Below are positions 895 to 28,767 of a stretch of 36,582 nucleotides of DNA, piece after piece. The stretch is from Deinococcales bacterium (GTDB taxonomy: Bacteria > Deinococcota > Deinococci > Deinococcales > JAAFIG01), in NCBI GenBank assembly GCA_043730305.1, contig JAYTKL010000330.1, forward strand, positions 1 to 36,582. Reading direction: 5' to 3'. Made by a program: the position numbers and the translations under genes. Each line of letters starts with the position of its first letter. Position 1 is the first letter of the stretch. The notes beneath the pieces are model-generated. The model was not told where the DNA came from and made no database searches. It saw only the letters and a program-made list of their open reading frames with translations.

Positions 895-924
895 GGTTGT
901 CACCGTAAAGATTGAGATCAATGT

Positions 925-2541: not shown

Positions 2542-2554
2542 GATTCACCTCGAG

Positions 2555-5011: not shown

Positions 5012-5080
5012 ACGTTCTCCTTTTGGCACGGATTAATCTCGAGGATTCCAAGTGTTTTGATTCAATCATCGGTAATGACC

Positions 5081-5178: not shown

Positions 5179-5391
5179 TTATTGGCTGGTTTCTGGAATT
5201 GCTTGTACCGCCAATCTCGAGAAGTCCAAACCGCAATTCACGCAAAATCTGACATAGGGCGAAGTGATATTGTGGTTGCACCGCAAGCAACGCTCGAGTA
5301 ACCGTGTTCCGTCGTTGGCACAGTAAAGTTCTTTTGATTGTGTTGGCACTGCACGAAAACACTGTGGGCAAAGTCGGTATTGGATTCGCAC
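5179..5391 (-). CDS. Small double zinc-ribbon protein
   Basis: CPQC...CAND...CLRC...CVNCG cysteine pattern; AGGAGG RBS upstream. Start is either GTG at 5391 or ATG at 5397. Confidence 0.7.
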   Translation of the reverse strand: MRIQYRLCPQCFRAVPTQSKELYCANDGTRLLERCLRCNHNITSPYVRFCVNCGLDFSRLAVQAIPETSQ

Positions 5392-5432
5392 GGACATCTC
5401 CTCCTGCATGGTCGCAAGTATCTTGGGCGTTC

Positions 5433-5451
5433 GGTCATAACTTGGTCATAA
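5433..5451 (-). promoter_or_regulatory. TTATGACC direct repeat, 11-bp period (SARP/OmpR-type operator candidate)
   Basis: ggtcataa at 5433-5440 and 5444-5451, in the divergent intergenic region between the zinc-ribbon gene and the STAND regulator. Confidence 0.5.
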
Positions 5452-5468
5452 GAATTTTGGGTCGCAAC

Positions 5469-8400
5469 ATGAAAATCAGAACGGACACTTTAAAAACTTT
5501 GGCGCTGCGTTTAAATCCTGTCGTTTCTAAGCGATTGGGTGTGGTGTTGTGCGTGCAAGGCGGCGCAGGTTTGGGAAAAACCTGGGTGTTGTCTCAACTC
5601 TTGCCCGAACTCAAATGCCGTTCTCAAACACTTCCCGCCACTGCCAGTACCGCGCAGTGGTTGAGAAGTTTGGTGCGTCCCAAAAAGGTATCTGCCAGCA
5701 GCGAAAAAACCTTGCTTCGAGTTGATGCGGGTGAAATGCTCGAGGATTCACTGGTTTTAAAAGTGTTCTCAGAGTTGCTGCGTGAACTCGCACCGTTTGT
5801 CTTGCATCTCGAGGATGTGCATGATGCCAGTCAGGAGCGTTTGGAATTGCTGGCTGGTTTACAAGCCCTTGTTTTAAAAACAAAAGGAGTGGGGTTGATT
5901 TTGACCAGTCGTCACGAATTGCCTTTCGCAGCAGGGCAGGTTTTACTTGATCCTCTTTCTCGAGAAGAATCGAACGCTTTGCTGCTGAATGAACTTGGCG
6001 CAGAGCTACCGGTTGAAGCGCTTGATTACATTTTTATGCGTGCTCGGGGCAATCCGCTTTTCAGTCTCGAGTTTTTACGGTTTTTAACGCGTTTGGGGTC
6101 ACTGTGGTCGGATGGTAAAATTTGGAATTGGCGTACGCCAACCACGGGTTTTATGCCGGTCACCATCGAAGCCCTGCTCGAGAACTTACTGATGACTGCC
6201 AGTAACGATGTTGCAAGTCGTGCCGTACTGGAGGCATTGGCATTTTTAAAAACCCCGCCAAAAGACTTGTGGCGTTTGGTGGCAGGCTTAACACAAACCG
6301 AATTTGAAGCTGCAATCGGTACACTCGAGGCGCAACAGATTTTGCAAAACGCTGCGTTCGTGCATCCCTTGTATCAAGAGGTGATGGCTGGATTACTGAC
6401 CGACGAGCAAAAACAAAATCGGTCACGGTATTTACTTGGTGCGACAAACCCAGATTTGCGAGCGGCTGCGGTCTTGCTCGAGGAATTAACGGCTTTGGTT
6501 TTAACTGCAAACCTATCAAGCCTTGAAGAGCAACGCTGGCTCGAGCGGGTTTGTTTGGTTGCACAACAATCTGGGCAGCTTCGTTTTGCGAGTCGTTGTA
6601 AGGCGTGGTTGGCAGAACGCAGCGATGCTGATTTGGATTCTTTTTATGTTATCGCCGAAGAGGTTGGCGTTTTTGACCCTACCGAATCCATGCGGCTCAT
6701 GCGGCTGATTTTGGGAAGGCAACCCGATCATTTAAAGGCAGGCACAACCCTGAGCAATCTTTTGTGTGACCGTGACGAATTCATCGAAGCTCAGTTGGTT
6801 CTTGATGCGCTGCCCGAGATATTACATTCAAATCCCATTTGGTTGGGTATGAAAATCGTGTTCTTATGTAAATCTGGTCAATTTCAAGAATTGATTTCTT
6901 TTTATGAAATCCACCCAGAAATTATGACCATACCCGCCAGTTACTACGTGGCTTTTGCGTATTATATTTTAGGACAAGATGATCAAGCTCGAGCCATTGC
7001 CGCGACACGTGCCGAGTATCCAATCGAGAATTTTGAAAAATCGGCGTTGTTCAGTATCGAATCGGGTGTGCTATTACGTCAGGGGCGTTTCCTTGAGGCG
7101 TTGGAATTTGCTGATAAGCACGTCGAGTTGGCTCGGGGTTTGAATGAACCCATTGATTTAGCCACGGCTTTACGGTCACGCTCACAACTTTTTCCACGTT
7201 TGTTGCGTGAGCAAGAAGCTTACGCAGATTTACGCGAAGCCCTCGAGTTGAGTTTAGAAATTGGCGATACCAGAAATGTTTTGGGTTGCCAAGTCAGTTT
7301 GTGTCGTGATTACCTCGATTCCATGCAGTACCAAAAAACTGAGACCTTGTTACTCGAGATTGATGCTTTGCAAAGCCAACTTCCTAAAAACGAAAAACTC
7401 TTTTACACAAAATTAAATTTGAGCGAATTGTATGACAAATGGCAGCCCGCGCACGGCAAGGCATTGGCTCAAAAGTATGTTCGTGCCGCTTTAAGCCTGA
7501 GTGAATCGGTGCAACACAAGCGTTTGCGTTTGCTGGCGCTTTGTCGTGCCGCGATGGTCGAAGCCAGACTAGGGCAAGCGGCACAGGCGCTCAAATACGC
7601 CGAGGAAGCTTGGCAGGTGCTCACAGACCGCAACTCACCGCCCGAAGAGCGTGTTCAATGCCTGCAGGCGCTGGCAAGTGCTTTTGAAGTGAACTTGCAG
7701 CCAAAAATCGCGCTCGAGAAGTTACGCGAAGCCGAAGAATTATCCCAAAAGCATGGTTTTGAACGGTTGCTGCATTCGAGCAAACTCGAGATTGCACGGC
7801 TCGAGCATGACAGCGCGGCTGCCAAACAAGAATTGGCTTGGTTTGAAACCCACGGTACGGCATACATGGCGTACTTAACAAAACACTATTTTCCAGTTCT
7901 CGAGACCCAAATCGAACCCATAACCAGCCTCCAAAGCCCAGACGTTTTTCTGAACGTTCTGGGTTCGGTTCAACTTGTCAAGGACGGTAAAAGCATTTTT
8001 TACCGAGGGCGAAAACGTCTTGATTTTTTGCTGATCTTGCTCGAGGCTCGAATTTCTGGTCAGACTGAAGTCAGCACTTTAGGCTTGATTGATGCCCTGT
8101 ACCCAGACTTGATGGAGATTGAGGGCAAAGCCGCCTTAAAACAATTGGTTTACCAGTTACGCAATGGTCTTGGCTCTAATGTGATTCAAAGCACCGCCAA
8201 GGGTTACATGCTGGGGGGCATTGTCAGCGATGCCGAACAATTTTTGCAAACCAGAGACACCGCGTATTGGCGCGACGTGTACATGGCAGATTTACCAGGT
8301 TTTGAACAATCGAACCTCAGAAACAGGCTGGTCAGTACCGTGCAATCACAACTCGAGATATTGATCGAAACCGACACGCTTGAGACTGCACGCCTTGGAC

Positions 8401-8597
8401 AAATTTTACTTGAAATGGAACCTTATGACCGTGACGTGCTCGAGTTGACCCTACGCGCCTTAAAACAATCTGGGCAATCGACACAAATTGTTTACCAAAA
8501 TGCCAAAGAACGATTTGTTGAATTGGGCGAAAAGCTGCCCAACTCGAGCGATGCTTTTTTAGCGTTGAGTCTTCAAAGTAGGCTGCTCGAGGCATAA
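5469..8597 (+). CDS. STAND-type AAA ATPase / TPR / C-terminal winged-helix-BTAD transcriptional regulator
   Basis: Walker A GGAGLGKT, Walker B LHLEDVH, ARGNPLF motif, central TPR-like helices, and C-terminal LNVLGSVQL...LIDALYP...LKQLVYQLR...GY plus EPYD (SARP wHTH/BTAD). Start moved to ATG 5469 to avoid overlap with the zinc-ribbon gene. Confidence 0.85.
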   Translation: MKIRTDTLKTLALRLNPVVSKRLGVVLCVQGGAGLGKTWVLSQLLPELKCRSQTLPATASTAQWLRSLVRPKKVSASSEKTLLRVDAGEMLEDSLVLKVFSELLRELAPFVLHLEDVHDASQERLELLAGLQALVLKTKGVGLILTSRHELPFAAGQVLLDPLSREESNALLLNELGAELPVEALDYIFMRARGNPLFSLEFLRFLTRLGSLWSDGKIWNWRTPTTGFMPVTIEALLENLLMTASNDVASRAVLEALAFLKTPPKDLWRLVAGLTQTEFEAAIGTLEAQQILQNAAFVHPLYQEVMAGLLTDEQKQNRSRYLLGATNPDLRAAAVLLEELTALVLTANLSSLEEQRWLERVCLVAQQSGQLRFASRCKAWLAERSDADLDSFYVIAEEVGVFDPTESMRLMRLILGRQPDHLKAGTTLSNLLCDRDEFIEAQLVLDALPEILHSNPIWLGMKIVFLCKSGQFQELISFYEIHPEIMTIPASYYVAFAYYILGQDDQARAIAATRAEYPIENFEKSALFSIESGVLLRQGRFLEALEFADKHVELARGLNEPIDLATALRSRSQLFPRLLREQEAYADLREALELSLEIGDTRNVLGCQVSLCRDYLDSMQYQKTETLLLEIDALQSQLPKNEKLFYTKLNLSELYDKWQPAHGKALAQKYVRAALSLSESVQHKRLRLLALCRAAMVEARLGQAAQALKYAEEAWQVLTDRNSPPEERVQCLQALASAFEVNLQPKIALEKLREAEELSQKHGFERLLHSSKLEIARLEHDSAAAKQELAWFETHGTAYMAYLTKHYFPVLETQIEPITSLQSPDVFLNVLGSVQLVKDGKSIFYRGRKRLDFLLILLEARISGQTEVSTLGLIDALYPDLMEIEGKAALKQLVYQLRNGLGSNVIQSTAKGYMLGGIVSDAEQFLQTRDTAYWRDVYMADLPGFEQSNLRNRLVSTVQSQLEILIETDTLETARLGQILLEMEPYDRDVLELTLRALKQSGQSTQIVYQNAKERFVELGEKLPNSSDAFLALSLQSRLLEA

Positions 8598-8599
8598 CC

Positions 8600-10759
8600 A
8601 TGAACCTGATTGTTTCGCACAGGTTACTAAAAAAAACCAAACACTTCTTGCCGAAAGCGGCGCTGGGTTTGTCTGTGCTGATCTGGTCGTTGCTGGCAAT
8701 TTTGGTGGTCAGTTTATTGCTCATGTTCACCTGGTTTTTTTGGCATTTTACGACCACAACCCCGTGTTACAAACCAAACTGCACGCTCTTATTTGCGTGG
8801 TTTAACAGCCATCATGTTCCGCTCGAGTTGTACGCGGTGCTTTACGAGATTTCTTTTGTTGTGCCGACCGTTATTTGGATTGCGTTGGCAGTTTGGGTCT
8901 TTCGGGCAAAACCAGGTTGGATTTGGAGTTATGTTTTCGCACTTTTTTTCTTGGTCGGTTGGTACGGCGAAATCAGCGTGCAGTACGTTCGTCGCTCACT
9001 GCCCGAGGCAATTGATTATGCCTTGCAATCTCTTCACTTGACGGGACTTGCCAATCATTTGGCGACCCTCGAGGTTGGTCGGTTTCTTTGCAAATTCTTG
9101 AAAATGCTGGCGGACAACCTGGGGGTATTGGTCATTTTTACTTTTCCAAACGGAAAATTTTTACCACGTTGGTCTTTGGTTTACGTCATTGGTTTTTTCT
9201 TGATTTCGTTGGGTTATTCATTGCCAAGCTTGCACGATACTTTTTGGAATTACAACAATTGGGGCTTCCCGTTTACTTTTTTCATGCATTTGGCTTTGGC
9301 TTTTGGTTTGGCTTACGGCTTGCTGGTGCGTTACCGCTCGAGCGCTAACCTGATTCGTTCTCGGGTGCGTGGTGTGATTCCTGCCATGTTGGTGAATATC
9401 GTGGTGTCCAGTGGAATCACCTATTTTCAAGCGTTGATCATGCCTAAAGTGCTGGTGAGCGATTTTCAGATTCAGGTGGTACAACCTTAGATTTTGTTGT
9501 TTAACAAGTGGCTCAATGGTATTTGCATGGTTTGGTGGGCGCTGGCGGTGGCACAAGCCATCGTGCGTCAGCAATTGTTTGACAGCCGTTTTGTGCTCAA
9601 CCGCGCCTTTGCCTACAGCGCCTTGATTCTCAGTACCGGCGTGTTGTACGGTCTGATCGTTGGTGGCTTGGGAACGTTTTTTCGTTCTGCCAATGTTTGG
9701 TTGTCCGTGCTGGCAACGGGCGTGATTGCCGTGGTGTTTCAACCACTGCTGATATTTTTTAGGCAATCGGCAAATCGTTTGTTTTACGGCGAACGCAACG
9801 ACCCGTACCGTGCCATCAGCAAATTTGGCAAGCAACTCGAGATGGTCTACAAACCCGAAGAGTTGGCGTTGACCATCGTTCATACCGTGGCAACGACCTT
9901 GCGTTTGCCGTATGTGGCATTAAAACCCTTGCCAATTGAGGCTGGGCAGAGCATCAGCTTGGGTGAACCTGTGGCGCAATTGCTCGAGTTTCCAATGGTC
10001 GTTAAGGGAGCAAACGTGGGCTTGTTGATCGTTTCAACGCGCTTTGTTGGCGAGTCGTTTTCGCCAAGTGAAACCAGGTTGCTCGAGGATTTGGCGGCTC
10101 GAGCGGCGGTGGCGGTGCAAGAGGCGCTGTTAAATCAAGAACTGAGGCTTTCCAAGGAAGCCATCGTGCTTGCCCGCGAGGAGGAACGCAAACGCATTCG
10201 GCGGGATTTACACGATGGACTTGGACCGATGCTGGCAAGTTTGTCGTTTCAGTTGCAAGCCACACGAAGTTTGCTGATCTATGACCCAAAACGTGCGGAC
10301 GCATTATTGGAAACCTCAGCCCAGAACGTTCAAGATGCCATCAGTGACATTCGGCGTTTGGTTTACGGTTTACGCCCTCCGGCGCTCGATGATCTGGGTT
10401 TGGAGGGCGCATTGCGTCAACAGGTCGGGCAGATGCTTGGAGTCTACACCGAGACTCAAATTGAGACGCTCGAGCCGTTACCTGCGGCGCTCGAGGTGGC
10501 AGCCTACCGTATCGCGTGTGAGGCTCTGAACAATGTTTCAAAGCACGCCAACGCCAAACACGTCAAACTGAGTTTGAGAATAGAAGACGGTGGTTTAAAA
10601 CGGATCGTGCAAGACGACGGCATTGGTTTAAAAGACACCCAAGTTAACGGAGTGGGAATGCACTCGATGCGTGAACGGGTGCTCGAGCTTGGCGGCAAAC
10701 TCGAGCTTGAATCGCCACAAGGCACTCGGGTTACGGCTTGGTTGCCATTAAGGAAATAA
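8600..10759 (+). pseudogene. Membrane-bound NarX/HisKA_3-type sensor histidine kinase interrupted by an in-frame TAG at 9488-9490
   Basis: ORFs 8600-9490 (multi-TM) and 9494-10759 (TM, GAF-like, EERKRIRRDLHDGLG H-box, EALNNVSKHA, DDGIG, GVGMHSMRERV) are in the same frame, separated only by one stop codon. Confidence 0.75.
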
Positions 10760-11415
10760 TGGAAAAAATTGGTGTTTTAATCGTTGATGACCACCCCATC
10801 ATCCGCAGTGGTTTGCGTTTGCTGCTCGAGCTTGAAGAGGGCATCGAAGTTGTCGCCGAAGCCGAAGATGCCGAAGTTGCGTTGCGGCTTGCCTCCGAAT
10901 TACAACCTGACGTAATCCTGATGGACATTCAATTGCCGTCCATGAACGGGATTGAAGCCACACGGCGGATTAAAACCGAAAATCCTCGGATTCAGATTTT
11001 GATGCTGACCATGTTTCAAGATGACGATTCGGTCTTTGCGGCGGTGCGAGCTGGAGCACAAGGGTACTTGTTAAAGGGCGCAAACCAATTCGAGATTGTT
11101 CAAGCCATTCGCGGGGTGGCTCGAGGGGAGGCGATTTTTGGCGCGGGCGCAGCCGAACGGGTCATGCGATATTTTGCCGCGACCCGTCCAGTTTCTTCCC
11201 CAGCCTTTCCAGAATTAACCCCTCGAGAACACGAAATTCTCGAGTTGATCGCCAAGCGCTGTAGCAACACCGTGATCGCTGGGCGGCTTGACCTGAGTCC
11301 AAAAACCGTGCGGAATTACGTCAGCAATATCATTTCTAAATTGCAAGTGGCAGACCGTTCGGAGGCGATTTGGGCAGCCAAAAATGCAGGCATTGGTGAA
11401 AAAAACGAATTTTGA
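10759..11415 (+). CDS. NarL/LuxR-family response regulator
   Basis: VDDHP, PDVILMD phosphoacceptor, GYLLK, and LuxR HTH LTPREHEIL...LSPKTVRNYVSNIISKL. ATG overlaps the kinase stop (TAATG). Confidence 0.95.
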   Translation: MEKIGVLIVDDHPIIRSGLRLLLELEEGIEVVAEAEDAEVALRLASELQPDVILMDIQLPSMNGIEATRRIKTENPRIQILMLTMFQDDDSVFAAVRAGAQGYLLKGANQFEIVQAIRGVARGEAIFGAGAAERVMRYFAATRPVSSPAFPELTPREHEILELIAKRCSNTVIAGRLDLSPKTVRNYVSNIISKLQVADRSEAIWAAKNAGIGEKNEF

Positions 11416-18060: not shown

Positions 18061-21000
18061 TTACGGATATTGTTTCACTACCCATTCATCTTTGTCGAGT
18101 GCATCTTTGTCGGTATAACCGACTGTCATAATCTTTCCAGCAGCAGTCCAAGTAATTCCCCAGCCCGCATCGGCTCGCGGAGCAACGGCTGGCAAAACAG
18201 AACCAAGGTATGCGTTTGGATTATCACTACCATACAAAACCAGTGAGCCGAGCACACCATTGGCGTTTAAAATTCCTGCCATGTAATCCAAACCGGTAGC
18301 CGTGTAATTACTACCACTGACCGCAATTTCGCTGGTCGTTTTATTCACTGAAATACCCGTGCAGGTTTTACCCCCAGTGCTATTAGCAGCCCCAAAGCTG
18401 GTGATGCCGCTGCTCGAGCCGAAGCTTGTGTCAATCGCACCTGCCGTAAGTTCATAGCGAATTACAAAACAACTTTTGTTTGGCTCGGTCTCACCTACGC
18501 AATCGTTTACGCATTGCGTACCCGTACCAACCAAGAATGTTTTTAAGCCTGCGGCAGTTTTGATCGTTTGCAATCCCATTTCGTACAGTTGATTGCCACC
18601 CGTACTTGGAATATTGGTTTGAATCGCACCACCACCAACACCACCCCAAGAATTATCCAAATTGCCAGATACGTCGTAACGGGCTATTGCAGTAATCGTA
18701 CCGCCTGGTCGGATGACCCCACCAGCGTAAATGCGATATGTCGTACCAGATTCTTCGATCAACACGTCGTTCACACCTTGAGAAAACGAACTCAAGCCAA
18801 GCACACTCATCACATCGGTTTCGACTCGCCCAGCAGTGCCAAAAGTGTTGTCTGGCATACCAGCGCTATCAAAACGATGCAGTACAAAACGGTCACGCAC
18901 ACCAGGAGTCCGAGAATCAAAACCACCCGTAACAATATTGTCCTTACGATCAATGGCAACACTTCCAAAGTAATCATACTTTGCGTCGGTAAGCGTACCC
19001 ACAAACTTTGGGAATCCAATAAATGGAGTACCGTTTGGCTGGTATTTCATCAGTACGGCTTGCGTGTTGGTGGTGGTGGGTCCACCTGCATAACCAACCA
19101 CCACGATATTGCCTTGACTGTCAAGTGCAACATCCATTGCGGTGTCGTTGGCAGGACTAAAATTTTGTTCGTCCTGCCAAATTACTATTGTGCCTGTGGA
19201 ATCATAACGTCGCACAAAAAATTGTTTGCCCAGTGTCAAAGTATCACTCGAGCCAACCACGATGAAATCACCAGTGACAGCTTCTTGCACTACCGATTCG
19301 GCATGGTGCAAATCGAATGGCTTGGTTAAGGTTAAAACGTCGCTCGAGGTGTTGTTCTGTAAGTTCGTCTCACCAACAGGTAAGTAACTCGAGACTGTGG
19401 CGGTGTTCGTGATATTGCCTGTGGCGTTTGCATTGGTGGTTGCGGTCACGTTGATTGTGTAATTCGAGCCTGCTGCCAGAGAACTATTCGAGGTGCAAAT
19501 AATCGTTAGGAAACCCGTGCATGTTCCAGCCGAGGATGGTACAAACACTGCGCTTCCGCTCGAGAATGCTGCTGGTAAAGTGTCGGTGATCTTGATTGGA
19601 CCTGGAGCATCACCAGTGCTGGTATTTGTCACGTTTAACGTGTAATTTACAGTGCCTCCAGGTGCAACGGTTACATTAGAATGGGTTTTCGTGATAGCAA
19701 GGTCAAATCCCTCGAGTGCCATGTTTTGGCTGTCAATGCAGCTTTTGTTGTTTTGGTTGTTCGCGTCATTGTAGGCGATGGGGGTAGGGACACCAACTGG
19801 ATTGCCATTGACCAAACTAGCGCAGTTGGTTTCGCCTTGGGCTAGGGCTGGATTTTCTGGTTTGAGCGTGACATTGAGTACCAATGGTGGGAAACTCTGA
19901 CCGGCAGCCACAGGCGCACCCGAGTATGTGCAAGTCAGGGTTGGGAATGTTCCAGTGCAAGTCCAACCTGCGGCGGCGGAAGCTGCGGAAACCAATGGAG
20001 ATGAGGCAGTGAAAGCAATTACTGATCCAACAGGGATATTGGTGAGTGCGTCTTGAATGGTGACGGTGCTCAGGGCTGGTCCAGAATTATTGGTGACAAC
20101 AATTTGATACTGACCAGGCAAACCCCAATAGAAAGAATTGGCAGGGGTTGTTAACGGCGCAATTTGGGTTTTAACGATTCCCAAATCAGTTTTGGTGGGT
20201 TGGTATTTGGTGCATGGTTTGGCATATGGCGCTGGTCCTAAGTGGTTGTTGTTGTTGACCGTATCGCCCAGCAAAGGATAAAGCCAGGGGCAATTTTGTT
20301 GTGTGTTTAAATTCGTTAACCCTGTTACTTTAACGGTCACTTTCAAGGGTGGGTAAGGTGTACCTGCTGTCACAAATGCAGGTTTTAGATTGCACGTAAG
20401 AGTTCCTAGAAATACGGAGCAATTATAGGCAGGGTTGGCAGCGATTATTGCAGCAAGGTCATAGGAGTATCCAGCAGGGAGTGGTGGGTCTTGAATCTTG
20501 ACGTAAGTTGGCAACGGCGTTGGGTTTGCTAGGCTTGCCGTAATCGTAAATTCACCTGTGCCATTACCGCTTCCATCAACCACAAAAGGTTTAGATACGG
20601 TTTTGTCAATGATTAAGTCAAAACCTGATGCCGCAGCCGTGACTGTGCTGGCGGCAAGTACAATTTGGTTTGTCAGCACAGCGCTGTTGATGCTGATTGG
20701 CAGGTTGAGTAAATGTGTTCTTGCTTGTAGTGCCGTTGGGGCATCCACGTTTTTAAAAGTCAGATCAAACAAGGGTTTTAAACTGGTTTGTGCCTGTCCC
20801 TCGAGTTTTGCGCCGTCTTTGGCGGTACAAGTTAACAGCACTTCACTGGTTTGGTCGCAAGCGTAAAGGTTACTCTCGAGGCTTAAAAATTCTAAGTCAG
20901 ACGTGATGTTAAACGAGACTTGTGGCGGCATCCCAGCAACGCTGCTGGTATTTTTGACGATTGCTTCGGCGGGTTGAATGGTCGTGCCGTCCACGAAAGT

Positions 21001-21132
21001 TGTACCGAGTGCGTTACCTGTCACTTCAAAGCTTGCGTCTTGCACTGGACTGGGACACGCGGTTAACGCCCCTGCCATCAGGCTCGAGAGGACAAGCCAT
21101 TTGAGTGTTTTGTATTGCGGGTTGGTTTTCAT
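18061..21132 (-). CDS. Large surface lipoprotein with DUF11-like Ig repeats and C-terminal delta-60-repeat (beta-propeller-like) region
   Basis: GGAGG RBS; lipobox LTAC; repeats DL.I.KT...Y...VTN.....I.D.LP...W.C; C-terminal ARYD.SG.LD.SFG/TFG repeats. Confidence 0.8.
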   Translation of the reverse strand: MKTNPQYKTLKWLVLSSLMAGALTACPSPVQDASFEVTGNALGTTFVDGTTIQPAEAIVKNTSSVAGMPPQVSFNITSDLEFLSLESNLYACDQTSEVLLTCTAKDGAKLEGQAQTSLKPLFDLTFKNVDAPTALQARTHLLNLPISINSAVLTNQIVLAASTVTAAASGFDLIIDKTVSKPFVVDGSGNGTGEFTITASLANPTPLPTYVKIQDPPLPAGYSYDLAAIIAANPAYNCSVFLGTLTCNLKPAFVTAGTPYPPLKVTVKVTGLTNLNTQQNCPWLYPLLGDTVNNNNHLGPAPYAKPCTKYQPTKTDLGIVKTQIAPLTTPANSFYWGLPGQYQIVVTNNSGPALSTVTIQDALTNIPVGSVIAFTASSPLVSAASAAAGWTCTGTFPTLTCTYSGAPVAAGQSFPPLVLNVTLKPENPALAQGETNCASLVNGNPVGVPTPIAYNDANNQNNKSCIDSQNMALEGFDLAITKTHSNVTVAPGGTVNYTLNVTNTSTGDAPGPIKITDTLPAAFSSGSAVFVPSSAGTCTGFLTIICTSNSSLAAGSNYTINVTATTNANATGNITNTATVSSYLPVGETNLQNNTSSDVLTLTKPFDLHHAESVVQEAVTGDFIVVGSSDTLTLGKQFFVRRYDSTGTIVIWQDEQNFSPANDTAMDVALDSQGNIVVVGYAGGPTTTNTQAVLMKYQPNGTPFIGFPKFVGTLTDAKYDYFGSVAIDRKDNIVTGGFDSRTPGVRDRFVLHRFDSAGMPDNTFGTAGRVETDVMSVLGLSSFSQGVNDVLIEESGTTYRIYAGGVIRPGGTITAIARYDVSGNLDNSWGGVGGGAIQTNIPSTGGNQLYEMGLQTIKTAAGLKTFLVGTGTQCVNDCVGETEPNKSCFVIRYELTAGAIDTSFGSSSGITSFGAANSTGGKTCTGISVNKTTSEIAVSGSNYTATGLDYMAGILNANGVLGSLVLYGSDNPNAYLGSVLPAVAPRADAGWGITWTAAGKIMTVGYTDKDALDKDEWVVKQYP

Positions 21133-21432: not shown

Positions 21433-21535
21433 TTTAGGGGTGTAAATGATTGATCCCAGATCGAGAATCTCGAGATTAAGGTCAGAATTTTAAGGTGGTA
21501 TTTTTGGTTTCTTGAAACAGTGCTACAATGAAATC

Positions 21536-21847
21536 ATGAAATCTCAAGTCAAAACCATTGGTGCAGGTGGACAAATTTATTTGGGCAAAGAATTCGCGGG
21601 TCAGCATGTACTGGTCACGCAAATAGACAAAGGCGTGTGGCGCATCAAAACAGCCGATGTCATTCCACACGATGAAAAATGGATGCACACCCCAGAGAAC
21701 ATTGCCAAAATAGATGAAGGTCTCAAACGTCTTGAACTGACACCCGCTCGAGCCACCACCCCTGAAGAAATGGAGGCTTTATTCGCTAAAGCCTTTGCCT
21801 TAGCCGAAGAACGTGAGCGAGCCAAAGAAAAGAATTTGCGTACATGA
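21536..21847 (+). CDS. Putative antitoxin (AbrB/MazE-like N-terminus)
   Basis: VKTIGAGGQIYLGKEFAG swapped-hairpin-like N-terminus; extended -10 TGcTACAAT 6 nt before the ATG; ATGA overlap with the downstream small gene. Confidence 0.65.
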   Translation: MKSQVKTIGAGGQIYLGKEFAGQHVLVTQIDKGVWRIKTADVIPHDEKWMHTPENIAKIDEGLKRLELTPARATTPEEMEALFAKAFALAEERERAKEKNLRT

Positions 21848-22119
21848 TTGAACTTGACTTAAACGATTCTGGTTTTCAAAAAGATTTGTTTAAACTTGAT
21901 AAAATCAATTTAGCCAAAGTCATGGGAACTTTAAAAAAATTAGCTCAAATGGCTTGGGAGCAAATTTATCAAGATCAAGGATTGCATTGGGAATGGATCG
22001 AAGACAAAGATTACTACACCATTCGGGCTTCCGATAAAATCAGGATCTCTGCCAGACGTGATGGAAACCTCATGCGTTTCCTTGGAATTTTTACCAACCA
22101 CGATGACGCGTACAATTAA
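21844..22119 (+). CDS. Putative RelE/ParE-fold toxin
   Basis: 91 aa with pattern F.KDL.KL.K......L.......GLHWE.I....YTIR.S...R.......L.....NHDDAY; translationally coupled to the upstream gene. Confidence 0.65.
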   Translation: MIELDLNDSGFQKDLFKLDKINLAKVMGTLKKLAQMAWEQIYQDQGLHWEWIEDKDYYTIRASDKIRISARRDGNLMRFLGIFTNHDDAYN

Positions 22120-22124: not shown

Positions 22125-23756
22125 TCAGTTGGCGTTGTTAAACTCTCTAGCCGTCTCGAGCACCCAATTGCTGTAAATCCCTGACAAGAAACCACTGGCT
22201 TTCGTGTTGCGGTTTGCTGCGTCGTAAACCCATTTTGCAGTCTTATCAAGTTGATAGGCGCTTCGTAGGGCAGTGATGGCGTTTTGCCAACCCAAAGCTT
22301 GCCGTAAATCGCGGGTTAATTTCCAAATGGCTTTGCGGGCTTTGTCTTTTTCGGTGTCTTCTATCGCGTCGGGGTACAACGCGTCGGTCAGGACTTCAAG
22401 GCTGGCAGTTCCACCTTGCTCGAGCATGAACACCAGCAATTCACCAACCCGACTGGTGGGTGTTATTGGCACAGAGCGTCCGTTGACTTTGACTTGCAAC
22501 ACGCCCAAAGCGTTCACTTCGACTTTGGTTTGGGTTATGTACTTTAAACGCGTTTGTTTGGTCTCGAGCAGCGCGAACAAACTTGGGAAAGCCCGACTTT
22601 CTTCTTTGGTTTGCAGCGTCTCGAGCGGAATTTTTTGCAGTAATTCGCGGGCGGTGTCGGTGTTGCCAGCGCGTCGCTCGAGTTCGGCTTGAACGATTGT
22701 TGCAAGGTGTTGACTGCTGGCTTCGACCAAAGGCGTGGCAAATTTGAGGTCTTGGTGGGCTTCACTGTTGCGGTTTAATGCCAGGTACGTTACGGCTCGG
22801 ATCACCAACGAATCAGGAACAGCCCCGTGTTTGTGATTGGCAGCTTCGAGCACCTCGAGGGCAGCAGAAGCTTGACCTGAAAGCCGCAAGGTTCGTGCCA
22901 ATCCCTGTCTTGCGATTAAATCGTCATCTGGGTCTATGGCGCACTCAATCGCTTGACGCATCATAAATTCGGCTCGAGAAAACTCGCCTTTGGAACGCCT
23001 GAATGCTGCCAAGCCACGCAAGATCGCTGACCGTAAACCTTTTGCGTGCGGTTTGCGGGTCAGGTATTCGCCAATCAAAAAATGTTGTTCGGCTTCGGGG
23101 TCTTGCAACCGCAAAGCATTTCGACCAAGATTGAAACGCAACCAAGCCAGATGAAAATGATCGTTTGGGAAAAAAGTAAGCGCTTTGGTATTTAGAAATT
23201 GAGCTTGTTTGAGTTGACCATAACTTGACAGGCAATGTGCATAATCTAACAAAGTCAAACCAAGGGCACGACCATCTTGTAACTCAAGTGATTGTTTAAA
23301 AGTAGTCTGCCAGTCTTCTCCAAGCTGAAATTGAGTAAGTCCAAGACGGCGCAATGCTACGCCACGAATATTTCCACTAAGGTATGGCAATGCAGATAAA
23401 AGCGCTTCTTGGGCTTCGTCATTTTTGTCTTGAAGATACAATGCAAAAGAACGGTCAACCAAAATTCGCGCATTTGTTTTTGGATCAAATAGGTTTGCTA
23501 CACAATCGGTAAATTGTAGCAATTCCAGAACCATGCGGTTGCCCATCAGAACATTGGAGTACGCTGTGGCAACTCGAGCGGAGGAAGAGAGAATATCTTC
23601 TGGAATCAATTGTAAGCAGTCAAGTAAGGGTTTCCATTGATCTTGGGATTGAATTTTCAAGATAAAATCTAGAATTTTTTCAGCAGCATCTTCATGACGC
23701 TGTTCAGAAATCAAATGTCGTAGTACAAGTTGAATCCTAGTTACGGAAATTAACAC
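22125..23756 (-). CDS. TPR-repeat protein with C-terminal SARP/OmpR-type winged-helix DNA-binding domain; candidate peptide receptor
   Basis: GGGGAG RBS + GTG; ~400 aa of helical TPR-like repeats; C-terminal VEVNALG.LQVKVNG...ELLVFML...LTDALYP...IWKL..DLRQALG...Y.L. No ATPase motif or TM segment seen. Confidence 0.8.
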   Translation of the reverse strand: MLISVTRIQLVLRHLISEQRHEDAAEKILDFILKIQSQDQWKPLLDCLQLIPEDILSSSARVATAYSNVLMGNRMVLELLQFTDCVANLFDPKTNARILVDRSFALYLQDKNDEAQEALLSALPYLSGNIRGVALRRLGLTQFQLGEDWQTTFKQSLELQDGRALGLTLLDYAHCLSSYGQLKQAQFLNTKALTFFPNDHFHLAWLRFNLGRNALRLQDPEAEQHFLIGEYLTRKPHAKGLRSAILRGLAAFRRSKGEFSRAEFMMRQAIECAIDPDDDLIARQGLARTLRLSGQASAALEVLEAANHKHGAVPDSLVIRAVTYLALNRNSEAHQDLKFATPLVEASSQHLATIVQAELERRAGNTDTARELLQKIPLETLQTKEESRAFPSLFALLETKQTRLKYITQTKVEVNALGVLQVKVNGRSVPITPTSRVGELLVFMLEQGGTASLEVLTDALYPDAIEDTEKDKARKAIWKLTRDLRQALGWQNAITALRSAYQLDKTAKWVYDAANRNTKASGFLSGIYSNWVLETAREFNNAN

Positions 23757-23782
23757 GCAAGTCTCCCCAAATCAGTTTGACA

Positions 23783-23818
23783 TAAAAACAATGACGGGGT
23801 AGAAAACCCCCCGTCATT
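23783..23818 (-). terminator. Intrinsic terminator between the peptide gene and the TPR regulator
   Basis: Minus strand AATGACGGGG-ggttttcta-CCCCGTCATT followed by GTTTTTA. Confidence 0.8.
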
Positions 23819-23832
23819 CACTGCTTTTCTGA

Positions 23833-23988
23833 TTATCCGCCAGTACCGCCCTTTGTTGAATCATCTGCTGCAACAATTTGCATTTTGCTGTTTGTGTGGC
23901 TCGAGATTGCGGTTGTTGCGACCACAACGGTTAAAACGCTCAAGATTACGGCGATCAGGTAACGGTTGAACAATTTAATATTTTTCAT
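23833..23988 (-). CDS. 51-aa secreted pre-pro-peptide (Phr/AimP-like signalling peptide candidate), absent from the ORF track
   Basis: RBS TAAGGAG 7 nt before the ATG. Translation MKNIKLFNRYLIAVILSVLTVVVATTAISSHTNSKMQIVAADDSTKGGTGG*: basic N-region, hydrophobic core, polar C-terminal tail. Terminator immediately after. Confidence 0.85.
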   Translation of the reverse strand: MKNIKLFNRYLIAVILSVLTVVVATTAISSHTNSKMQIVAADDSTKGGTGG

Positions 23989-23999
23989 GGTGGTTCTCC

Positions 24000-24080
24000 T
24001 TAAAAGACTTGTGAGCGGTGTGATTTGCGGCGGGTCACGGTTTGTTTTTTGCGGGTCACATGGTCGTCATCTCGTTTCAT
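24000..24080 (-). CDS. Possible 26-aa basic leader ORF
   Basis: GAAAGAAGGG-ATG; MKRDDDHVTRKKQTVTRRKSHRSQVF*. Its TAA forms part of the peptide gene's RBS (TAAGGAG). Confidence 0.3.
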   Translation of the reverse strand: MKRDDDHVTRKKQTVTRRKSHRSQVF

Positions 24081-24242: not shown

Positions 24243-24271
24243 AAAAAACCCCGACTTTTTAGGTCGGGGTT
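24243..24271 (-). terminator. Intrinsic terminator after the S8 peptidase
   Basis: Minus strand AACCCCGAC-ctaaaaa-GTCGGGGTTTTTT. Confidence 0.85.
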
Positions 24272-24296: not shown

Positions 24297-26003
24297 TTAT
24301 GGGGTCAGGATGCCTGCAATGTTCAGGATGCCAGCGCCGCATTTTTCGGGCGCACAAGGTTGCAGTTTAGGCATTGGTGTTGGCACGTTGGGTGGTATGG
24401 CGCTGGCAATTAATTTTTGCTTGAACGCGATTGGGTTAATGTCGGGCATTCCAACGTATTTGGCGTAGTACAAACTGGCGGCGGCACTGACTTGCGGGGC
24501 GCTAAAGGACGTGCCTGAAAAAAGTTTTAACGCGTTTACATCTGGGAACAATTGATTGCCTGCCACGGCTTTCACCACGCCAATACCGCTGATGGTGACG
24601 CTGGCGGCGACGCTCGAGAAATCCGAGGCTTGGTAGGTGTTTGCGATTGGTCCAACGAATGGTTCGACACTGGCAACCGAAATCAGTCCTGGTATCGCGT
24701 CGTAACTGCCAACTTCGGACAGTCCAAAATTGGCGGGGTAATTGGCTGGGCGGCTTACATCTGTGCCTTTGTTACCTGCCGAGGTCACAATGGTCATGCC
24801 GCGCTCGCTGGCATCGTTTAAGGCACTTAATAACATGCTCGAGGGGTACTTGCTGCCCAAACTTAAATTGATGACTTTGACAGGGTTTTCGCCTGTGTTG
24901 AGGCTGATGGCATAACACACGCCCAAGATCACGCTCGAGTTGCGGCATCGTCCAGCTTTGCCCTCGCAAACTTTGATTGGCACGACCAGTTTGTCCATTT
25001 GTGGCGTGTAAACGGTGGCGGCTGGTGCGAAGGTGTTCAGGATGGTTGCGCCGACCATTCCAGCCACGGCAGTACCGTGTCCAACGTTGTTCGTTGGACT
25101 TGCTAACGATCCGTCAGCGTTGCGTTCAGTTGCCAGGTCGGTGACATCCGTGGCGTTGCCCTCCTTGGTAAAATTACGGGCTGCGGCAAAGTCAATTAAA
25201 TTACCCGTGCCGCCAATACTAAAAATTGGGTGGTTGACAATACCAGAGTCAATCACGGCAACCCGAGCAAGGTGTAAATCTGCGGGTATGGCTCGAGCTT
25301 GGGCGGGTGTTTGCGAGCTGGTGTTGGACGTGATGTTTTGGCTGATACCTGCACTTGGACTATCAGCCACAAATTTGGCATTCAAATCAAAAACAATGCC
25401 AGGTTCTAAGCTTTCCAAACTTTTTTGCAGGGCATTTAAACCTTCAATCACAGATCGGCTGGCAGTGTTATCTGAAAGCAAGACCATTGCTTGTCCGCAA
25501 ACGCTGGTGCTGCCAGGAACGAGTGGTTCTTGGGTTTGGGTGATGCTAAAACCTGCGGCTGCAATGGCGTCAAGAACCGCGCTGCGATTTGCCAAGTCTG
25601 GTTTGAATGCCAGCAAACCACCACCTTCCAAAATGTATTTGGAACGACTGCTCTCGAGGTCGTAATCACTTTCTGGAAATGTTTCTGCAATGTCCAGCAC
25701 ACCGATTCCAGTTTTGGCTGTGGCACTTAAGTCGCTGTTATCAACCCGAAGCGAGTACGTGCCAGTTTTAAGCGGGTTGGCTATTTTTACTTTGACCCAC
25801 GCGCCTGTTGGGTCATTTTCTAAAATTGAAGCGTTTTGCGTTCCAATCAAGACTTTGACTGGAAACAAGTTCCGTCCTTCAATTCTAAATTCGGTGCTGG
25901 TACTCGAGATCAGGGTGCTGGAATGAAGTTGCGGTGGTGAACTGATTGGGTCAAAACATGCTGTTAGGCATAAAGTCAAAATCAAACTCAGTGTTTTTTT
26001 CAT
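24297..26003 (-). CDS. S8 (subtilisin-like) serine peptidase lipoprotein with N-terminal IPT/TIG-like domain
   Basis: GAGGAG RBS; lipobox LTAC; triad motifs AVIDSG, GHGTAVAG, SGTSFSAP; VINLSLG and SAGN motifs. Confidence 0.9.
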   Translation of the reverse strand: MKKTLSLILTLCLTACFDPISSPPQLHSSTLISSTSTEFRIEGRNLFPVKVLIGTQNASILENDPTGAWVKVKIANPLKTGTYSLRVDNSDLSATAKTGIGVLDIAETFPESDYDLESSRSKYILEGGGLLAFKPDLANRSAVLDAIAAAGFSITQTQEPLVPGSTSVCGQAMVLLSDNTASRSVIEGLNALQKSLESLEPGIVFDLNAKFVADSPSAGISQNITSNTSSQTPAQARAIPADLHLARVAVIDSGIVNHPIFSIGGTGNLIDFAAARNFTKEGNATDVTDLATERNADGSLASPTNNVGHGTAVAGMVGATILNTFAPAATVYTPQMDKLVVPIKVCEGKAGRCRNSSVILGVCYAISLNTGENPVKVINLSLGSKYPSSMLLSALNDASERGMTIVTSAGNKGTDVSRPANYPANFGLSEVGSYDAIPGLISVASVEPFVGPIANTYQASDFSSVAASVTISGIGVVKAVAGNQLFPDVNALKLFSGTSFSAPQVSAAASLYYAKYVGMPDINPIAFKQKLIASAIPPNVPTPMPKLQPCAPEKCGAGILNIAGILTP

Positions 26004-26046: not shown

Positions 26047-28767
26047 TCAACGCGGCAACACGAGTTTGGCAGTGACCTCATCTAAGTTATCACGGAAATC
26101 TTGGCGCACTGGCAGGTTGTTATTTTCGAGCGTCAGAATGGCTTTTTGGTAGTGCATTAGTGCGTTTTGATGTTGACCGAGTTCGTAATAAATCACACCC
26201 AAATTATTTAACGCAATGGCGACACTGGTTGGGTTCTCGAGTTGTTGTTGAAGTTCTAAACTTCTAGTTTGAAATCCAAGTGCTTTCTGGAATTGATTTC
26301 GCTGCCCGTAGTACATGCCAATGTTGGTCAGCACCCGTGCCATACCTTGAACATCACCGAGGGTTTCACGGATGCTCAAGCATTCCAACAGATGGCTTTC
26401 GGCTTTGGAGTCGTTTAACGCCATGTAAACCACACCCATGCCACCAATAGAATCTGCCAGCCCACTTTGATTGCCTGTGGCGCGTCGAATCCGTCCCGCT
26501 TTTTTGTGATACTCGAGCGCCGCTTGGTACTCTTTTTTGTGCTCCGCAAAAAATCCGAGCAAATTGCACGTTTCGCTGATAGCATTTTGAGCTTTTAGCG
26601 TATTTTGGTTTTCCAGAATCTCGAGGGCGTTTTCCAAAATAATTTTGGATTGGTCAAAATCGCGGTATTCGCGTTGCAAAATCCAAGCCCTGGTGTTGAG
26701 CAATCTGGCTTTCAAGACGGGTTCTAAACTGTTGGAAATACTGGCGGCAGTCTCGAGTTCTTCGAGGGCTTGTTGATGTCGTCCAAAATTCTCTAAGGTG
26801 TTGGCGGTTTCCAGGAACACTTCGGCTCTGGCATCGGTGTTTTGTGCGGTGTTCAAGCTGCGCTCGAGCCATTTTAACGCTTCGGTTAAATCTCCGCGCC
26901 CAGCTTGAGCGCGACCAAATTCGAGAAAAAATTGCTGTGCGTGTTGTTCGTCTTTTTCATCCCAGACGCTTTTGGCTTCCCAGTAATGTCGTGCGGTGTG
27001 TTGGTCTTTGATTTGCGCGGCGCGGTAATGCAGTAAAATGCGTCTTGAAGGACTTAATTCGCTTTCGACCACTTCGCGGACAATGTCGTGAACAAAAGTT
27101 ATTTGATTGTTTTCAATGCTCACCAGCGCCGCGTGCTCCAATTCCTCGAGTGCCAAGTTTAGTTCCTCGAGCGAACGTCCTGAGATGCTGCGCAAGTGGG
27201 CGAATGTGGCAAGGTTACGAATGCAGAGCGCCTCGAGCACTTGTTGGGCGGGTTCGCTTAAACTTTGCAAGCGCAATAGCACCATTTCAACGGCTTTGGT
27301 TTCGCCGCTGACAGCAAATTGCAGCAACTCGAGCACAAAGAATGCGTTACCGCCAGAGCGTTTTAACAAAGCGGGAATGTCCACTTGTTTGGCATCTAAA
27401 GACAACGCCAATGTTCTGATTGCGCTTTCGGACAAGGCGTTTAAGGTCAGGTGCTTGGCTTGGTACGGGTTAAGCAGGGTTTCAACTTGGTTGCGTGATG
27501 CTTGCAAGTTGCGTTTGGTCAACATCAATTTGAGCGTACTTTGGGTTGTGCGCTCGAGCAAGAACACCAGAAACTCGAGGCTGGCAGTGTCAATCCATTG
27601 CGCGTCATCAATCACCAGCACGGTGCAAGAATTGGGCAGCAAGCTTTTCACGGCGTTAAAGAGCACCAGAGACTCGAGGGTTATATTTAAACCTACTTCG
27701 ATCAAATCTGGCACTAGGTTTGCCAGGGCGGCTTGTTCACTGACGTTTAAACGTTGCACGGCATCTGGGAATTGTTTGAAATGCTGACGTACCAGTGACT
27801 CGAGCACACTGTAGCGCAAACTTTCTTGATGGCAGCGTAACCATATGATGCTGTGCTGTTCAAGGGCATGGCAAACCTCGAGCGCCAGTCGTGATTTGCC
27901 CGCGCCTGGTTCGCCGTGGATCACCACAACCCGTTCGTTGCGCAGAAAGTCCACAATGGTTCGCAACTCGGTTTCGCGCCCGACAAACGGCACTTGATGG
28001 CGTTCGGTGGGTGTGCTGGTTTTCACACCCAACTCGAGTTGCAAGGCGGCACGACACGCCTCAAATTGCGCAGAACGCACCAATTCGAGGGCATCTTTGG
28101 TGCGTTGGCTGGGTTGAACCCCCAGTTCATCTTGCAAAACTTTGCTTAACGTGTTGTACGCCAGCGCCGCCTGATCGGTTTTGCGACTTGCGCCACATGC
28201 CAGAATCAAATGACGGCAAGCATCCTCGAGCGGGTCGCCGCCCTGGCTTTGTGTCACCTCGAGATAAGTGACTGCCGTTTCGTAATTGCCGAGTTGCAAT
28301 TGCGTCCGCCCCAATCTGGCGGCAAATTCGCGGCGTTCAAAAATCAGGGATTCTCGAGTGGCGTACAACCAATCTTCAAATTCTGCGCCCAAACCCAATT
28401 CCCAATCGGTCAATCGCAAACCCGTCAGAAAACCACCGCGCCATAAGTTCCAAATTGTTTCATCGGTTTGGCTTGCACCGACCCGCCACTCGAGCACATC
28501 ACACGCAATATTTTTCCCCAAAGCCAGCGAATCCGCATCCACCTCGAGCGCGTCTTGCCCAAGGGCTTTGACCACCAGATTTCGCGCCACCGAAATGTTA
28601 TTTAGGGCATTCGGCGCTTCAGACCACAAAATATTGCCCAGCACCCGCCTTGAGGTTCGACCCTCGAGCGCGAGGTAAGCCAGCATCGAAATGTGCTTCA
28701 CACCAAGTTTGACCGCCCGACCAGAAACGGTCAGGTTGGGTGTGCCGAGCAGTTCGAGACGGAGCAT
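26047..28767 (-). CDS. SARP/BTAD-AAA(STAND)-TPR transcriptional regulator (AfsR-like architecture)
   Basis: N-terminal LRLELLG.P...MLAYLALEG..SR..L...LW; BTAD FEDWL...RE and DPLE...L.DELGVQPS; PFVGRETEL, Walker A GEPGAGKS, Walker B VIDDAQWID, SGGNAFF, FVHD; C-terminal TPRs. Confidence 0.9.
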   Translation of the reverse strand: MLRLELLGTPNLTVSGRAVKLGVKHISMLAYLALEGRTSRRVLGNILWSEAPNALNNISVARNLVVKALGQDALEVDADSLALGKNIACDVLEWRVGASQTDETIWNLWRGGFLTGLRLTDWELGLGAEFEDWLYATRESLIFERREFAARLGRTQLQLGNYETAVTYLEVTQSQGGDPLEDACRHLILACGASRKTDQAALAYNTLSKVLQDELGVQPSQRTKDALELVRSAQFEACRAALQLELGVKTSTPTERHQVPFVGRETELRTIVDFLRNERVVVIHGEPGAGKSRLALEVCHALEQHSIIWLRCHQESLRYSVLESLVRQHFKQFPDAVQRLNVSEQAALANLVPDLIEVGLNITLESLVLFNAVKSLLPNSCTVLVIDDAQWIDTASLEFLVFLLERTTQSTLKLMLTKRNLQASRNQVETLLNPYQAKHLTLNALSESAIRTLALSLDAKQVDIPALLKRSGGNAFFVLELLQFAVSGETKAVEMVLLRLQSLSEPAQQVLEALCIRNLATFAHLRSISGRSLEELNLALEELEHAALVSIENNQITFVHDIVREVVESELSPSRRILLHYRAAQIKDQHTARHYWEAKSVWDEKDEQHAQQFFLEFGRAQAGRGDLTEALKWLERSLNTAQNTDARAEVFLETANTLENFGRHQQALEELETAASISNSLEPVLKARLLNTRAWILQREYRDFDQSKIILENALEILENQNTLKAQNAISETCNLLGFFAEHKKEYQAALEYHKKAGRIRRATGNQSGLADSIGGMGVVYMALNDSKAESHLLECLSIRETLGDVQGMARVLTNIGMYYGQRNQFQKALGFQTRSLELQQQLENPTSVAIALNNLGVIYYELGQHQNALMHYQKAILTLENNNLPVRQDFRDNLDEVTAKLVLPR

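Follow-up and report, generated by a model that had tools for sequence, protein, structure and literature searches.

The locus described here raises the question of whether a short gene lying ahead of a presumed regulatory gene encodes a secreted signal that the regulator reads. To our knowledge, genetically encoded peptide signals read by cytoplasmic receptors built of tetratricopeptide repeats (TPR) are regarded as a hallmark of the Bacillota and their phages. The two genes lie on contig JAYTKL010000330.1 of a member of the Deinococcales; the whole stretch analysed, 36,582 nt in length, is called the window below. The original prediction, made from the DNA letters alone, had correctly guessed a host in the Deinococcota and had proposed a signalling module analogous to the RRNPP systems. 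The comparative analysis that follows points to a two-gene peptide-receptor regulatory module that would work much as RRNPP systems do, with different parts; we put the probability of this reading at roughly 55%.

The gene pair and its predicted products

The features of the pair, all read on the minus strand, are the following.

22125..23756, minus: receptor gene, 543 amino acids (aa), GTG start (from the list of open reading frames, ORFs)
22575..23756, minus: receptor residues 1-394, TPR-type helical repeat region, putative peptide sensor (Pfam TPR_19, TPR_12 and TPR_14; AlphaFold2 model; Foldseek matches to TPR superhelices)
22125..22544, minus: receptor residues 405-543 and stop codon, predicted SARP/OmpR-type winged-helix DNA-binding domain (domain model, fold match and sequence profile)
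23833..23988, minus: gene for a predicted 51-aa pro-peptide (ORF and translation; constrained; homologous ORFs at related loci)
23996..24001, minus: Shine-Dalgarno sequence AAGGAG, 7 nt ahead of the peptide ATG (read from the sequence)
23784..23818, minus: intrinsic terminator or attenuator, a hairpin plus T-run between the peptide and receptor genes (sequence, terminator scan and RNA folding)
24030..24059, minus: two copies of GTGACCCGC, 21 nt apart from start to start and 41-71 nt upstream of the peptide ATG; a weak candidate operator for the winged helix

Pfam recognized TPR families alone in the receptor, with no ATPase, kinase or BTAD family, and no NCBIfam model matched it above the cut-offs. 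The protein has no membrane-like stretch (highest 19-residue hydropathy, 1.0). An AlphaFold2 model built with 35 homologues (predicted local distance difference test, pLDDT, 93.7) showed ∼24 helices arranged as a TPR-like superhelix over residues 1-394, followed by a compact beta/alpha domain at residues 405-543; modelled separately, this C-terminal domain reached a pLDDT of 94.7. Its best fold match was the DNA-binding domain of the SARP AfsR (8hvr_I; E = 1.1e-4, template modelling score 0.72), followed by EmbR, CadC and PhoP-type domains, and its sequence profile matched EmbR (E = 0.0024), CarR, CadC and AfsR. The model of the whole receptor resembled generic, protein-binding TPR superhelices such as OGT and subunits of the APC, and no RRNPP receptor structure (Rap, NprR, PlcR, PrgX or AimR) was among the Foldseek matches listed. 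A search of the PDB with the whole sequence returned nothing useful, and a homology search retrieved 13 relatives, named at most ‘TPR repeat protein’. Pfam, the AlphaFold2 model and the fold matches thus agree with the original prediction of a protein lacking ATPase and kinase domains, encoded 76 bp downstream of the small gene; as modelled, it is a cytoplasmic TPR protein with a C-terminal SARP-type winged helix.

The hidden 51-aa ORF was present as predicted, and its translation was exactly the one quoted originally. The product has a basic N-terminus, a 19-residue hydrophobic stretch (peak 19-residue hydropathy 2.5, against 1.0 for the receptor), a polar linker, an aliphatic-aliphatic-Ala site and a 10-11-residue C-terminal tail rich in acidic residues, Lys and Gly. 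It had no significant match in Pfam or NCBIfam. The strong ribosome binding site and the separate terminator attributed to the gene were also recognized: the AAGGAG stands 7 nt before the ATG, and the hairpin with its T-run lies 11 nt past the stop codon. The hairpin has a GC-rich 10-bp stem (23790-23818; core placed by the terminator scan at 23810..23796), and the predicted folding energy of the intergenic RNA is -23 kcal/mol (z = -2.45 relative to shuffled sequences). Hairpins of differing sequence occupy the equivalent position in most loci of the window's taxonomic family. The receptor gene starts after a gap of 76 nt on the same strand. Upstream, the neighbouring S8 protease gene is closed by its own terminator (24247-24271, terminator scan), and the peptide gene is therefore taken to be a transcription unit of its own.

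The peptide gene accompanies the receptor gene

Homologous loci (denoted by L numbers) were examined in three families of the Deinococcales. Among 45 distinct loci, 43 had at least 200 nt of upstream DNA and could be evaluated. An intact peptide ORF on the same strand was present at 40 of these, a degraded one at two and none at one, so the idea that homologues keep an adjacent small ORF with a hydrophobic N-terminus survives. Thirty-nine of the ORFs end 11-158 nt before the receptor gene, and each product has a related tail and, at its N-terminus, a hydrophobic stretch that a few basic residues usually precede; in L058/L076, the peptide ORF lies 483 nt upstream. The ORF is frameshifted in L057, a tail remnant alone is left in L035, where the receptor gene has a stop codon, and no peptide ORF was found anywhere in 4.6 kb at L034. 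The two-gene design is kept at receptor identities down to about 25-30%, and all four receptor paralogues of the window's genome have a peptide gene.

An alignment of 35 peptides showed conservation in the tail only, with a consensus block DDPK...GG. The tails, of 9-12 residues, are rich in acidic residues, Lys and Gly or Cys; they consist of an acidic pair, usually followed by Pro-Lys and then by four to six Gly- or Cys-rich residues, and many hold two Cys, either adjacent or two or three residues apart. A strict aliphatic-aliphatic-small-acidic pattern was matched by 26 of 39 peptides, compared with 37 of 4011 control small ORFs, and the C-terminus of every one of the 26 lies 9-12 residues from the first acidic residue. 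At loci L016 and L031, a 10-residue tail comes immediately after a canonical Ala-x-Ala signal-peptidase site, which suggests that the tail itself is the product.

A small ORF with a hydrophobic N-terminus lies upstream of 240 of 1357 long ORFs in the window's genome. When the tail motif was required as well, two of the 1357 remained, both of them receptor paralogues. A strict tail test on 48,944 small ORFs genome-wide was passed by seven, three of them linked to receptors and the others apparently unrelated; the fourth receptor-linked peptide of this genome passes a looser criterion and not the strict one. By sequence, the tail motif is thus almost confined to neighbours of the receptor. Between orthologues, the ratio of nonsynonymous to synonymous differences per site (pN/pS) was 0.11-0.27 for the peptide (pS 0.34-0.62, pN 0.05-0.10) and 0.20-0.22 for the receptor. 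Judged on sequence evidence, the 51-aa ORF is a real, constrained protein-coding gene inherited along with the receptor gene, because its pN/pS is low, the control rates are low and the two genes are linked.

Whether peptides and receptors are inherited together was also visible on a receptor tree (a quick maximum-likelihood IQ-TREE search on 42 receptors, with 36 receptor-peptide pairs). Cys-containing and Gly-only tails clustered on this tree, with five changes each compared with 12.7-13.5 when the labels were shuffled. This reflects stable co-inheritance through many duplications; shared descent alone would give the same clustering, which does not by itself show co-evolution.

Several elements were observed upstream of peptide genes at other loci. 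A palindrome, GCGACA-N5-TGTCGC (core GACA-N5-TGTC), precedes 11 of 39 peptide genes (e.g. L018, L023, L033, L056, L059-L061, L063 and L066) and was also noted in L074, L075, L076 and L077; in the group linked to type I-E CRISPR-Cas it occurs once per locus, and its genome background is 0.01 per 200 nt. It is likely to be an operator for the WYL regulator described below or for the TPR regulator. No GACA-N5-TGTC palindrome was present in the window. Separately, the peptide genes of L016, L031, L026, L054 and L062, which belong to two families, are preceded by a conserved GC-rich element that resembles a hairpin; its loop sequence is shared, and it is located ∼25-45 nt ahead of the ribosome binding site.

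Linkage to CRISPR-Cas loci

The genes around the receptor were clustered in 20 further loci of ∼17 kb each, chosen for long contigs and family spread and not at random. In 11 of the 20, cas3 immediately follows the receptor gene in the same orientation, and is either fused to a helix-turn-helix (HTH)-WYL-WCX module or stands after a separate 330-aa HTH-WYL-WCX gene. The genes after cas3 encode Cse1, Cse2, Cas7e and Cas5e (type I-E) or Cas5d, Csd1 and Cas7c (type I-C), according to Pfam. In two more loci a WYL gene directly adjoins the receptor gene, and one was also found near it in L083 (at ∼2 kb) and L070 (from the annotation of a Deinococcus plasmid, L088, that matches it in length and receptor coordinates). 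The WYL regulator gene is the commonest direct neighbour of the receptor gene. At one of the 20 loci, type III-B genes (Cmr2, Cmr3 and RAMP) come after the receptor gene. L068 and L086 each have a CRISPR array, with a 37-nt repeat, immediately beside the peptide gene. As a separate observation on cas3 architecture, Cas3 of the type I-C loci L068, L069, L079 and L080 carries the HTH_11-WYL-WCX module as an N-terminal fusion (∼1080 aa), and in the type I-E loci the module is the separate 330-aa gene, between the receptor gene and cas3.

A cas3 profile search of 364 genomes placed at least 64 of 150 listed receptor positions within 6 kb of a listed cas3; these counts are lower bounds, as they cover the best 150 of 180 receptor positions, leave out 95 cas3 matches and include many short contigs. 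Among the linked positions, cas3 was downstream on the same strand in 44 (the median gap, 1165 nt, equals the WYL part in size), divergent in nine and convergent in 11. The linkage held for at least 58 of 105 listed positions outside the window's family and at least six of 45 inside it. A genome of 2-5 Mb has about one or two cas3 genes, a density at which the two genes would rarely be adjacent by chance.

Annotated plasmids show the same arrangement. On pMESIL01 of Allomeiothermus silvanus, a ‘tetratricopeptide repeat protein’ stands ahead of Cas3, Cas5c, Cas8c, Cas7c, Cmr1 and Cas10, and the unannotated gap upstream of it holds a 57-aa ORF with a typical tail. On plasmid P5 of Deinococcus gobiensis, the receptor and WYL genes head a casA-E operon divergent from cas3, with a small ORF in the intergenic region; the annotation of a Deinococcus sp. 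plasmid gives the small gene as a hypothetical protein of 57 aa. In the window's genome, a receptor paralogue on contig C240 heads a type I-C operon (WYL, Cas3, Cas5d, Csd1 and Cas7c).

Distribution of the receptor family

The window's genome (82.75% complete) has four receptor paralogues. The family was detected in 22 of 41 genomes of relatives, usually in several copies, and in 120 of 364 genomes of the phylum. By taxonomic family, it was present in 17 of 18 genomes of the window's own family, in 65 of 125 and 37 of 68 of two others, and in 0 of 128, 0 of 23 and 0 of 1 of the remaining three. An exhaustive profile search of 1.84 billion representative sequences found 274 proteins at E ≤ 1e-30; the best 150 of these are mostly 500-600 aa long with an end-to-end profile match, the rest being shorter fragments and one protein of 2559 aa. 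Fourteen named plasmid records matched the receptor (Deinococcus, seven; Thermus, six; Allomeiothermus, one), where the annotations read ‘tetratricopeptide repeat protein’ or ‘hypothetical protein’ and one match has no annotated feature at its position; no phage record matched. The runs listed by a search for sequencing data were all DNA metagenomes, with no RNA run among them. The Thermus plasmid matches span residues 135-448 only, and these proteins may therefore be without the winged helix. Several cassettes are plasmid-borne, and that of L073 adjoins ParA and ParB genes.

Comparison with known systems

The RRNPP systems of Firmicutes and their phages pair a TPR receptor with an adjacent secreted pro-peptide of ∼40-60 aa, the signal often lying at the C-terminus after an Ala. 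The pair described here resembles these systems, RRNPPA in the broader sense (Rap-Phr, NprR-NprX, PlcR-PapR, PrgX, Rgg-SHP and AimR-AimP), in joining a small gene for a probably exported pro-peptide, judging by its basic and hydrophobic N-terminus, to the gene of a cytoplasmic TPR-type receptor or transcription factor. Other likenesses are the probable active part at the peptide C-terminus, the several paralogous pairs with different peptides per genome, and the availability of an extracytoplasmic subtilase for maturation; Phr peptides are matured by subtilisin-type proteases. Whereas RRNPP receptors have an N-terminal XRE-type HTH (or, in Rap, an N-terminal helix bundle), the repeats here begin at the N-terminus and a SARP/OmpR winged helix is C-terminal. 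The peptide gene is upstream of the receptor gene with a terminator between them, an arrangement already recognized originally as unlike canonical RRNPP systems; the host phylum is Deinococcota, and the tails are alike across genera. No RRNPP family was matched in Pfam or NCBIfam or found among the Foldseek matches listed, although a remote kinship of the TPR folds is possible.

Domain order, DNA-binding fold and homology all differ, and the module is therefore not a member of the RRNPP family. The proposal of an analogous signalling module fares better: peptide signalling by this pair, as a reading of sequence data, is well supported by comparative genomics. The accessible text of two large RRNPP surveys contains no mention of Deinococcota or of winged-helix receptors. 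Nothing relevant came from literature searches that coupled RRNPP, quorum sensing and CRISPR to Deinococcus or Meiothermus, and no paper was found that links such a module to this phylum, in line with what had been supposed.

The domain description of the receptor in the original prediction was sound, but it missed that the protein belongs to a catalogued CRISPR accessory family, the ‘TPR protein’ (PADLOC PDLC01092 and PDLC01171; cluster C3a198), and that a cas3/WYL/cas operon is the commonest neighbour across that family. The window's receptor matched the PADLOC model ‘TPR repeats containing protein’ at E = 1.3e-111 (residues 18-540 against 2-502 of 504) and the model ‘C3a198, TPR protein’ over its full length at E = 2.1e-86. 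In the table of Shah et al. 2018 (PMC6546367), cluster 198 is a three-member ‘TPR protein’ of subtype III-B with Mrub_1490 as its representative, and that entry gives no function, DNA-binding domain or partner peptide. The label C3a198 and the locus tag Mrub_1490 were found in the literature in PMC6546367 only; the accessible text of an updated CRISPR classification and of a preprint on ‘CRISPR-linked genes’ mentions TPR in other contexts only. Compared with the catalogued protein, the family is far larger (274 representatives), is found mainly by cas3 of types I-C and I-E, and usually comes with a peptide gene, and the window copy is not beside cas genes. The CRISPR link of the receptor family is thus already catalogued, whereas it appears not to have been described as a transcription factor, nor do its peptide partner and its extent seem to have been reported. 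The pair is best filed as a variant of signalling by a peptide and a cytoplasmic TPR receptor that coincides with this uncharacterised CRISPR accessory family.

SARPs such as AfsR and EmbR share the winged-helix fold with the receptor, and large SARPs also combine it with TPR repeats. In the receptor, however, the order is reversed (TPR first, winged helix last), no BTAD or ATPase is recognized by Pfam, and the protein is paired with a predicted secreted peptide. Quorum sensing by acyl-homoserine lactones controls CRISPR-Cas in Serratia and in Pseudomonas aeruginosa. Under the proposal made here, a secreted density signal would likewise set the expression of cas operons; in those bacteria, however, the LuxI/LuxR system is global and far from cas, whereas here a dedicated pair lies inside the CRISPR-cas locus beside a WYL regulator.

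A model of the pair and its alternatives

The small gene product would be a pre-pro-peptide exported via Sec. Signal peptidase, an extracytoplasmic protease or both would free its C-terminal 9-12-mer by cutting after the aliphatic-aliphatic-small site; in the orthologue group of the window, the adjoining S8 lipoprotein could be the releasing protease. The peptide would build up outside the cell and enter through one of many oligopeptide ABC importers (17 binding-protein systems), the window's genome having 17 SBP_bac_5 genes and hence the capacity for oligopeptide uptake. Inside, it would bind the TPR domain of the 543-aa receptor and alter the action of the C-terminal winged helix at nearby promoters, and the intergenic terminator would keep peptide mRNA high and receptor mRNA low. 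A complex prediction of the receptor with peptide residues 22-51 scored 0.00; it was run without controls and weighs neither way on binding. For many family members, the controlled genes would most likely be the adjacent WYL-cas3-Cascade or Cmr operon, coupling CRISPR-Cas to a secreted signal; the window copy would be likely to target its own peptide gene together with the S8 protease, the STAND regulator beyond it, or both. Our broader view, which we hold tentatively and at less than even odds, is of a non-RRNPP peptide circuit of the Deinococcota built into CRISPR-cas loci, where it would tune adaptive immunity to a secreted signal, and duplicated and rewired elsewhere, for instance to secreted proteases, including in the window's lineage.

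Several points weigh against the model. These bacteria have an outer membrane, and the peptide would have to cross it twice; its export, cleavage, uptake and binding are steps that we infer from sequence. No dedicated exporter, importer or modifying enzyme was conserved beside the pair in the 20 neighbourhoods. Since the 36.6 kb of the window hold no cas gene or CRISPR array, the output of the window copy is a guess. The 19-residue stretch of the window's peptide has no classic Ala-x-Ala site close by, and could therefore be a membrane anchor rather than a cleaved signal. The tail pattern is nearly identical across genera and families whose receptors are ∼30-35% identical, whereas RRNPP pherotypes usually diverge; this conservation could reflect a shared processing or modification step. 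Finally, of the orthologues L008, L009, L010 and L032, the first alone keeps the GTGACCCGC repeat, with one mismatch. Because it is conserved in one orthologue only, it was not relied on as an operator.

The small protein could be coupled to the regulator without being a diffusible ligand, either as its first target or as a membrane-anchored or periplasmic accessory with its own role. The ligand of the TPR domain would then be a different one, for instance a partner protein such as the WYL regulator or a Cas protein. The hydrophobic stretch of the window's peptide is long enough for an anchor. The likeness of the tails across genera suits this explanation, and so do the place of the WYL gene as commonest direct neighbour and the fact that TPR domains commonly bind proteins, the best fold matches being protein-binding superhelices. 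We nevertheless think it unlikely: the sole conserved part is a polar C-terminal tail of fixed length (9-12 residues), which fits a short epitope better than a structural membrane protein, the basic N-terminus would put this tail outside and away from a cytoplasmic regulator, and the pairing has been kept over many duplications, even in copies that lack a nearby WYL or cas gene. The same structural basis (a Sec-type N-terminus, a conserved tail and a cytoplasmic TPR receptor) might also serve a monitor of secretion or envelope stress. When export fails, during phage infection or membrane damage, the tail of the cytoplasmic pre-peptide would bind the TPR domain and turn on defence genes, with no re-import. 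This would account for the link to cas operons, for tails that do not diverge between species and for the absence of a linked importer gene. The idea is purely inferential, however, we know of no precedent for secretion-failure logic with TPR regulators, and the aliphatic-aliphatic-small site and the extracytoplasmic S8 protease point to processing outside the cell; we regard it as very unlikely.

The two Cys present in many tails and the SARP-type fold match of the C-terminal domain, SARP-type domains being classically pathway-specific activators, would also fit a precursor of a ribosomally made modified peptide or bacteriocin, with the TPR/winged-helix protein as its SARP-like pathway activator. 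This is hard to reconcile with the 20 neighbourhoods, in which no modifying enzyme, immunity gene or dedicated transporter recurs, or with genomes that have several copies of these two genes alone; moreover, the N-termini are of Sec type and not leader peptides, and Gly-only tails offer nothing obvious to modify. We give this explanation little credence. Least credible is that the aa sequence of the 51-aa ORF is irrelevant, the ORF being either a chance frame or a leader whose translation governs read-through into the receptor gene. A short ORF with a terminator hairpin directly after it does recall leader-peptide attenuators, but selection acts at the protein level, the two-part protein design is found at 40 of 43 loci in spite of the divergence of the receptors, and the control rates are very low.

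Should the peptide-receptor model hold, the pair would bring with it a new receptor scaffold, with a SARP-type winged helix attached to a TPR sensor; it would also be the first signalling family with this peptide-receptor design outside the Bacillota, and the first locus-encoded signalling input to CRISPR-Cas. A convergent system in a phylum with an outer membrane would widen the Bacillota-centred picture. The module heads type I-C, I-E and III-B cas operons in cultured, harmless strains of Deinococcus, Meiothermus and Allomeiothermus, and so bears on when these cells express CRISPR-Cas. It gives a candidate role and a candidate partner to a functionless accessory ‘TPR protein’ of the catalogues, and it draws attention to a conserved gene for 40-60 aa that is missed, or called hypothetical, in the annotations of these loci.

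Neighbourhood of the window copy

Two genes of the window lie upstream of the peptide gene on its strand.

24297..26003, minus: S8 subtilase whose N-terminus is of lipoprotein type, first gene upstream of the peptide gene (Pfam Peptidase_S8, E = 1.1e-25)
26047..28767, minus: 906-aa SARP-type STAND regulator with winged helix, BTAD, AAA_16 and TPR, beyond the S8 protease gene (Pfam)

Three orthologous loci have upstream DNA (L008, L010/L044 and L032), and in each of them the S8 protease gene directly precedes the peptide gene, at 58-71% identity. From its position and sequence, the lipoprotein is a candidate for either the processing protease or a regulated target or output of the pair. Relatives of the STAND regulator occur near paralogous cassettes without cas genes on contigs C484 and C400 of the window's genome, and in L067 and L071.

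Elsewhere, the window is rich in secreted proteins and proteases. The region 125-5029 (minus strand) encodes a small protein with eCIS-core and M78-peptidase-like domains, a secreted Big_5/fn3 protein and a second S8 subtilase of 824 aa, and a DUF11 surface protein is encoded at 18061-21132. A 1097-aa AAA_16 protein (5304-8597, plus strand) has a C-terminal part that weakly resembles receptor residues 380-503, which comprise the junction and winged helix (E = 3.3e-4); it is followed by a histidine kinase and a LuxR-type response regulator (9494-11415). Convergent with the receptor gene are two overlapping small genes of 111 and 91 aa (21512-22119, plus strand), with no significant family match. 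In the equivalent position of the paralogous cassette on contig C484 (L002) lies another overlapping pair of small genes (92 and 113 aa); by sequence alone, they are toxin-antitoxin-like.

The hexamer CTCGAG occurs 210 times in the 36.6 kb of the window at 50% G+C, about once per 174 bp, the next commonest palindromic hexamer being found 40 times. It is present in genes and intergenic regions, and also inside the CRISPR repeats of related genera; its abundance is like that of highly iterated palindromes such as HIP1 of cyanobacteria.

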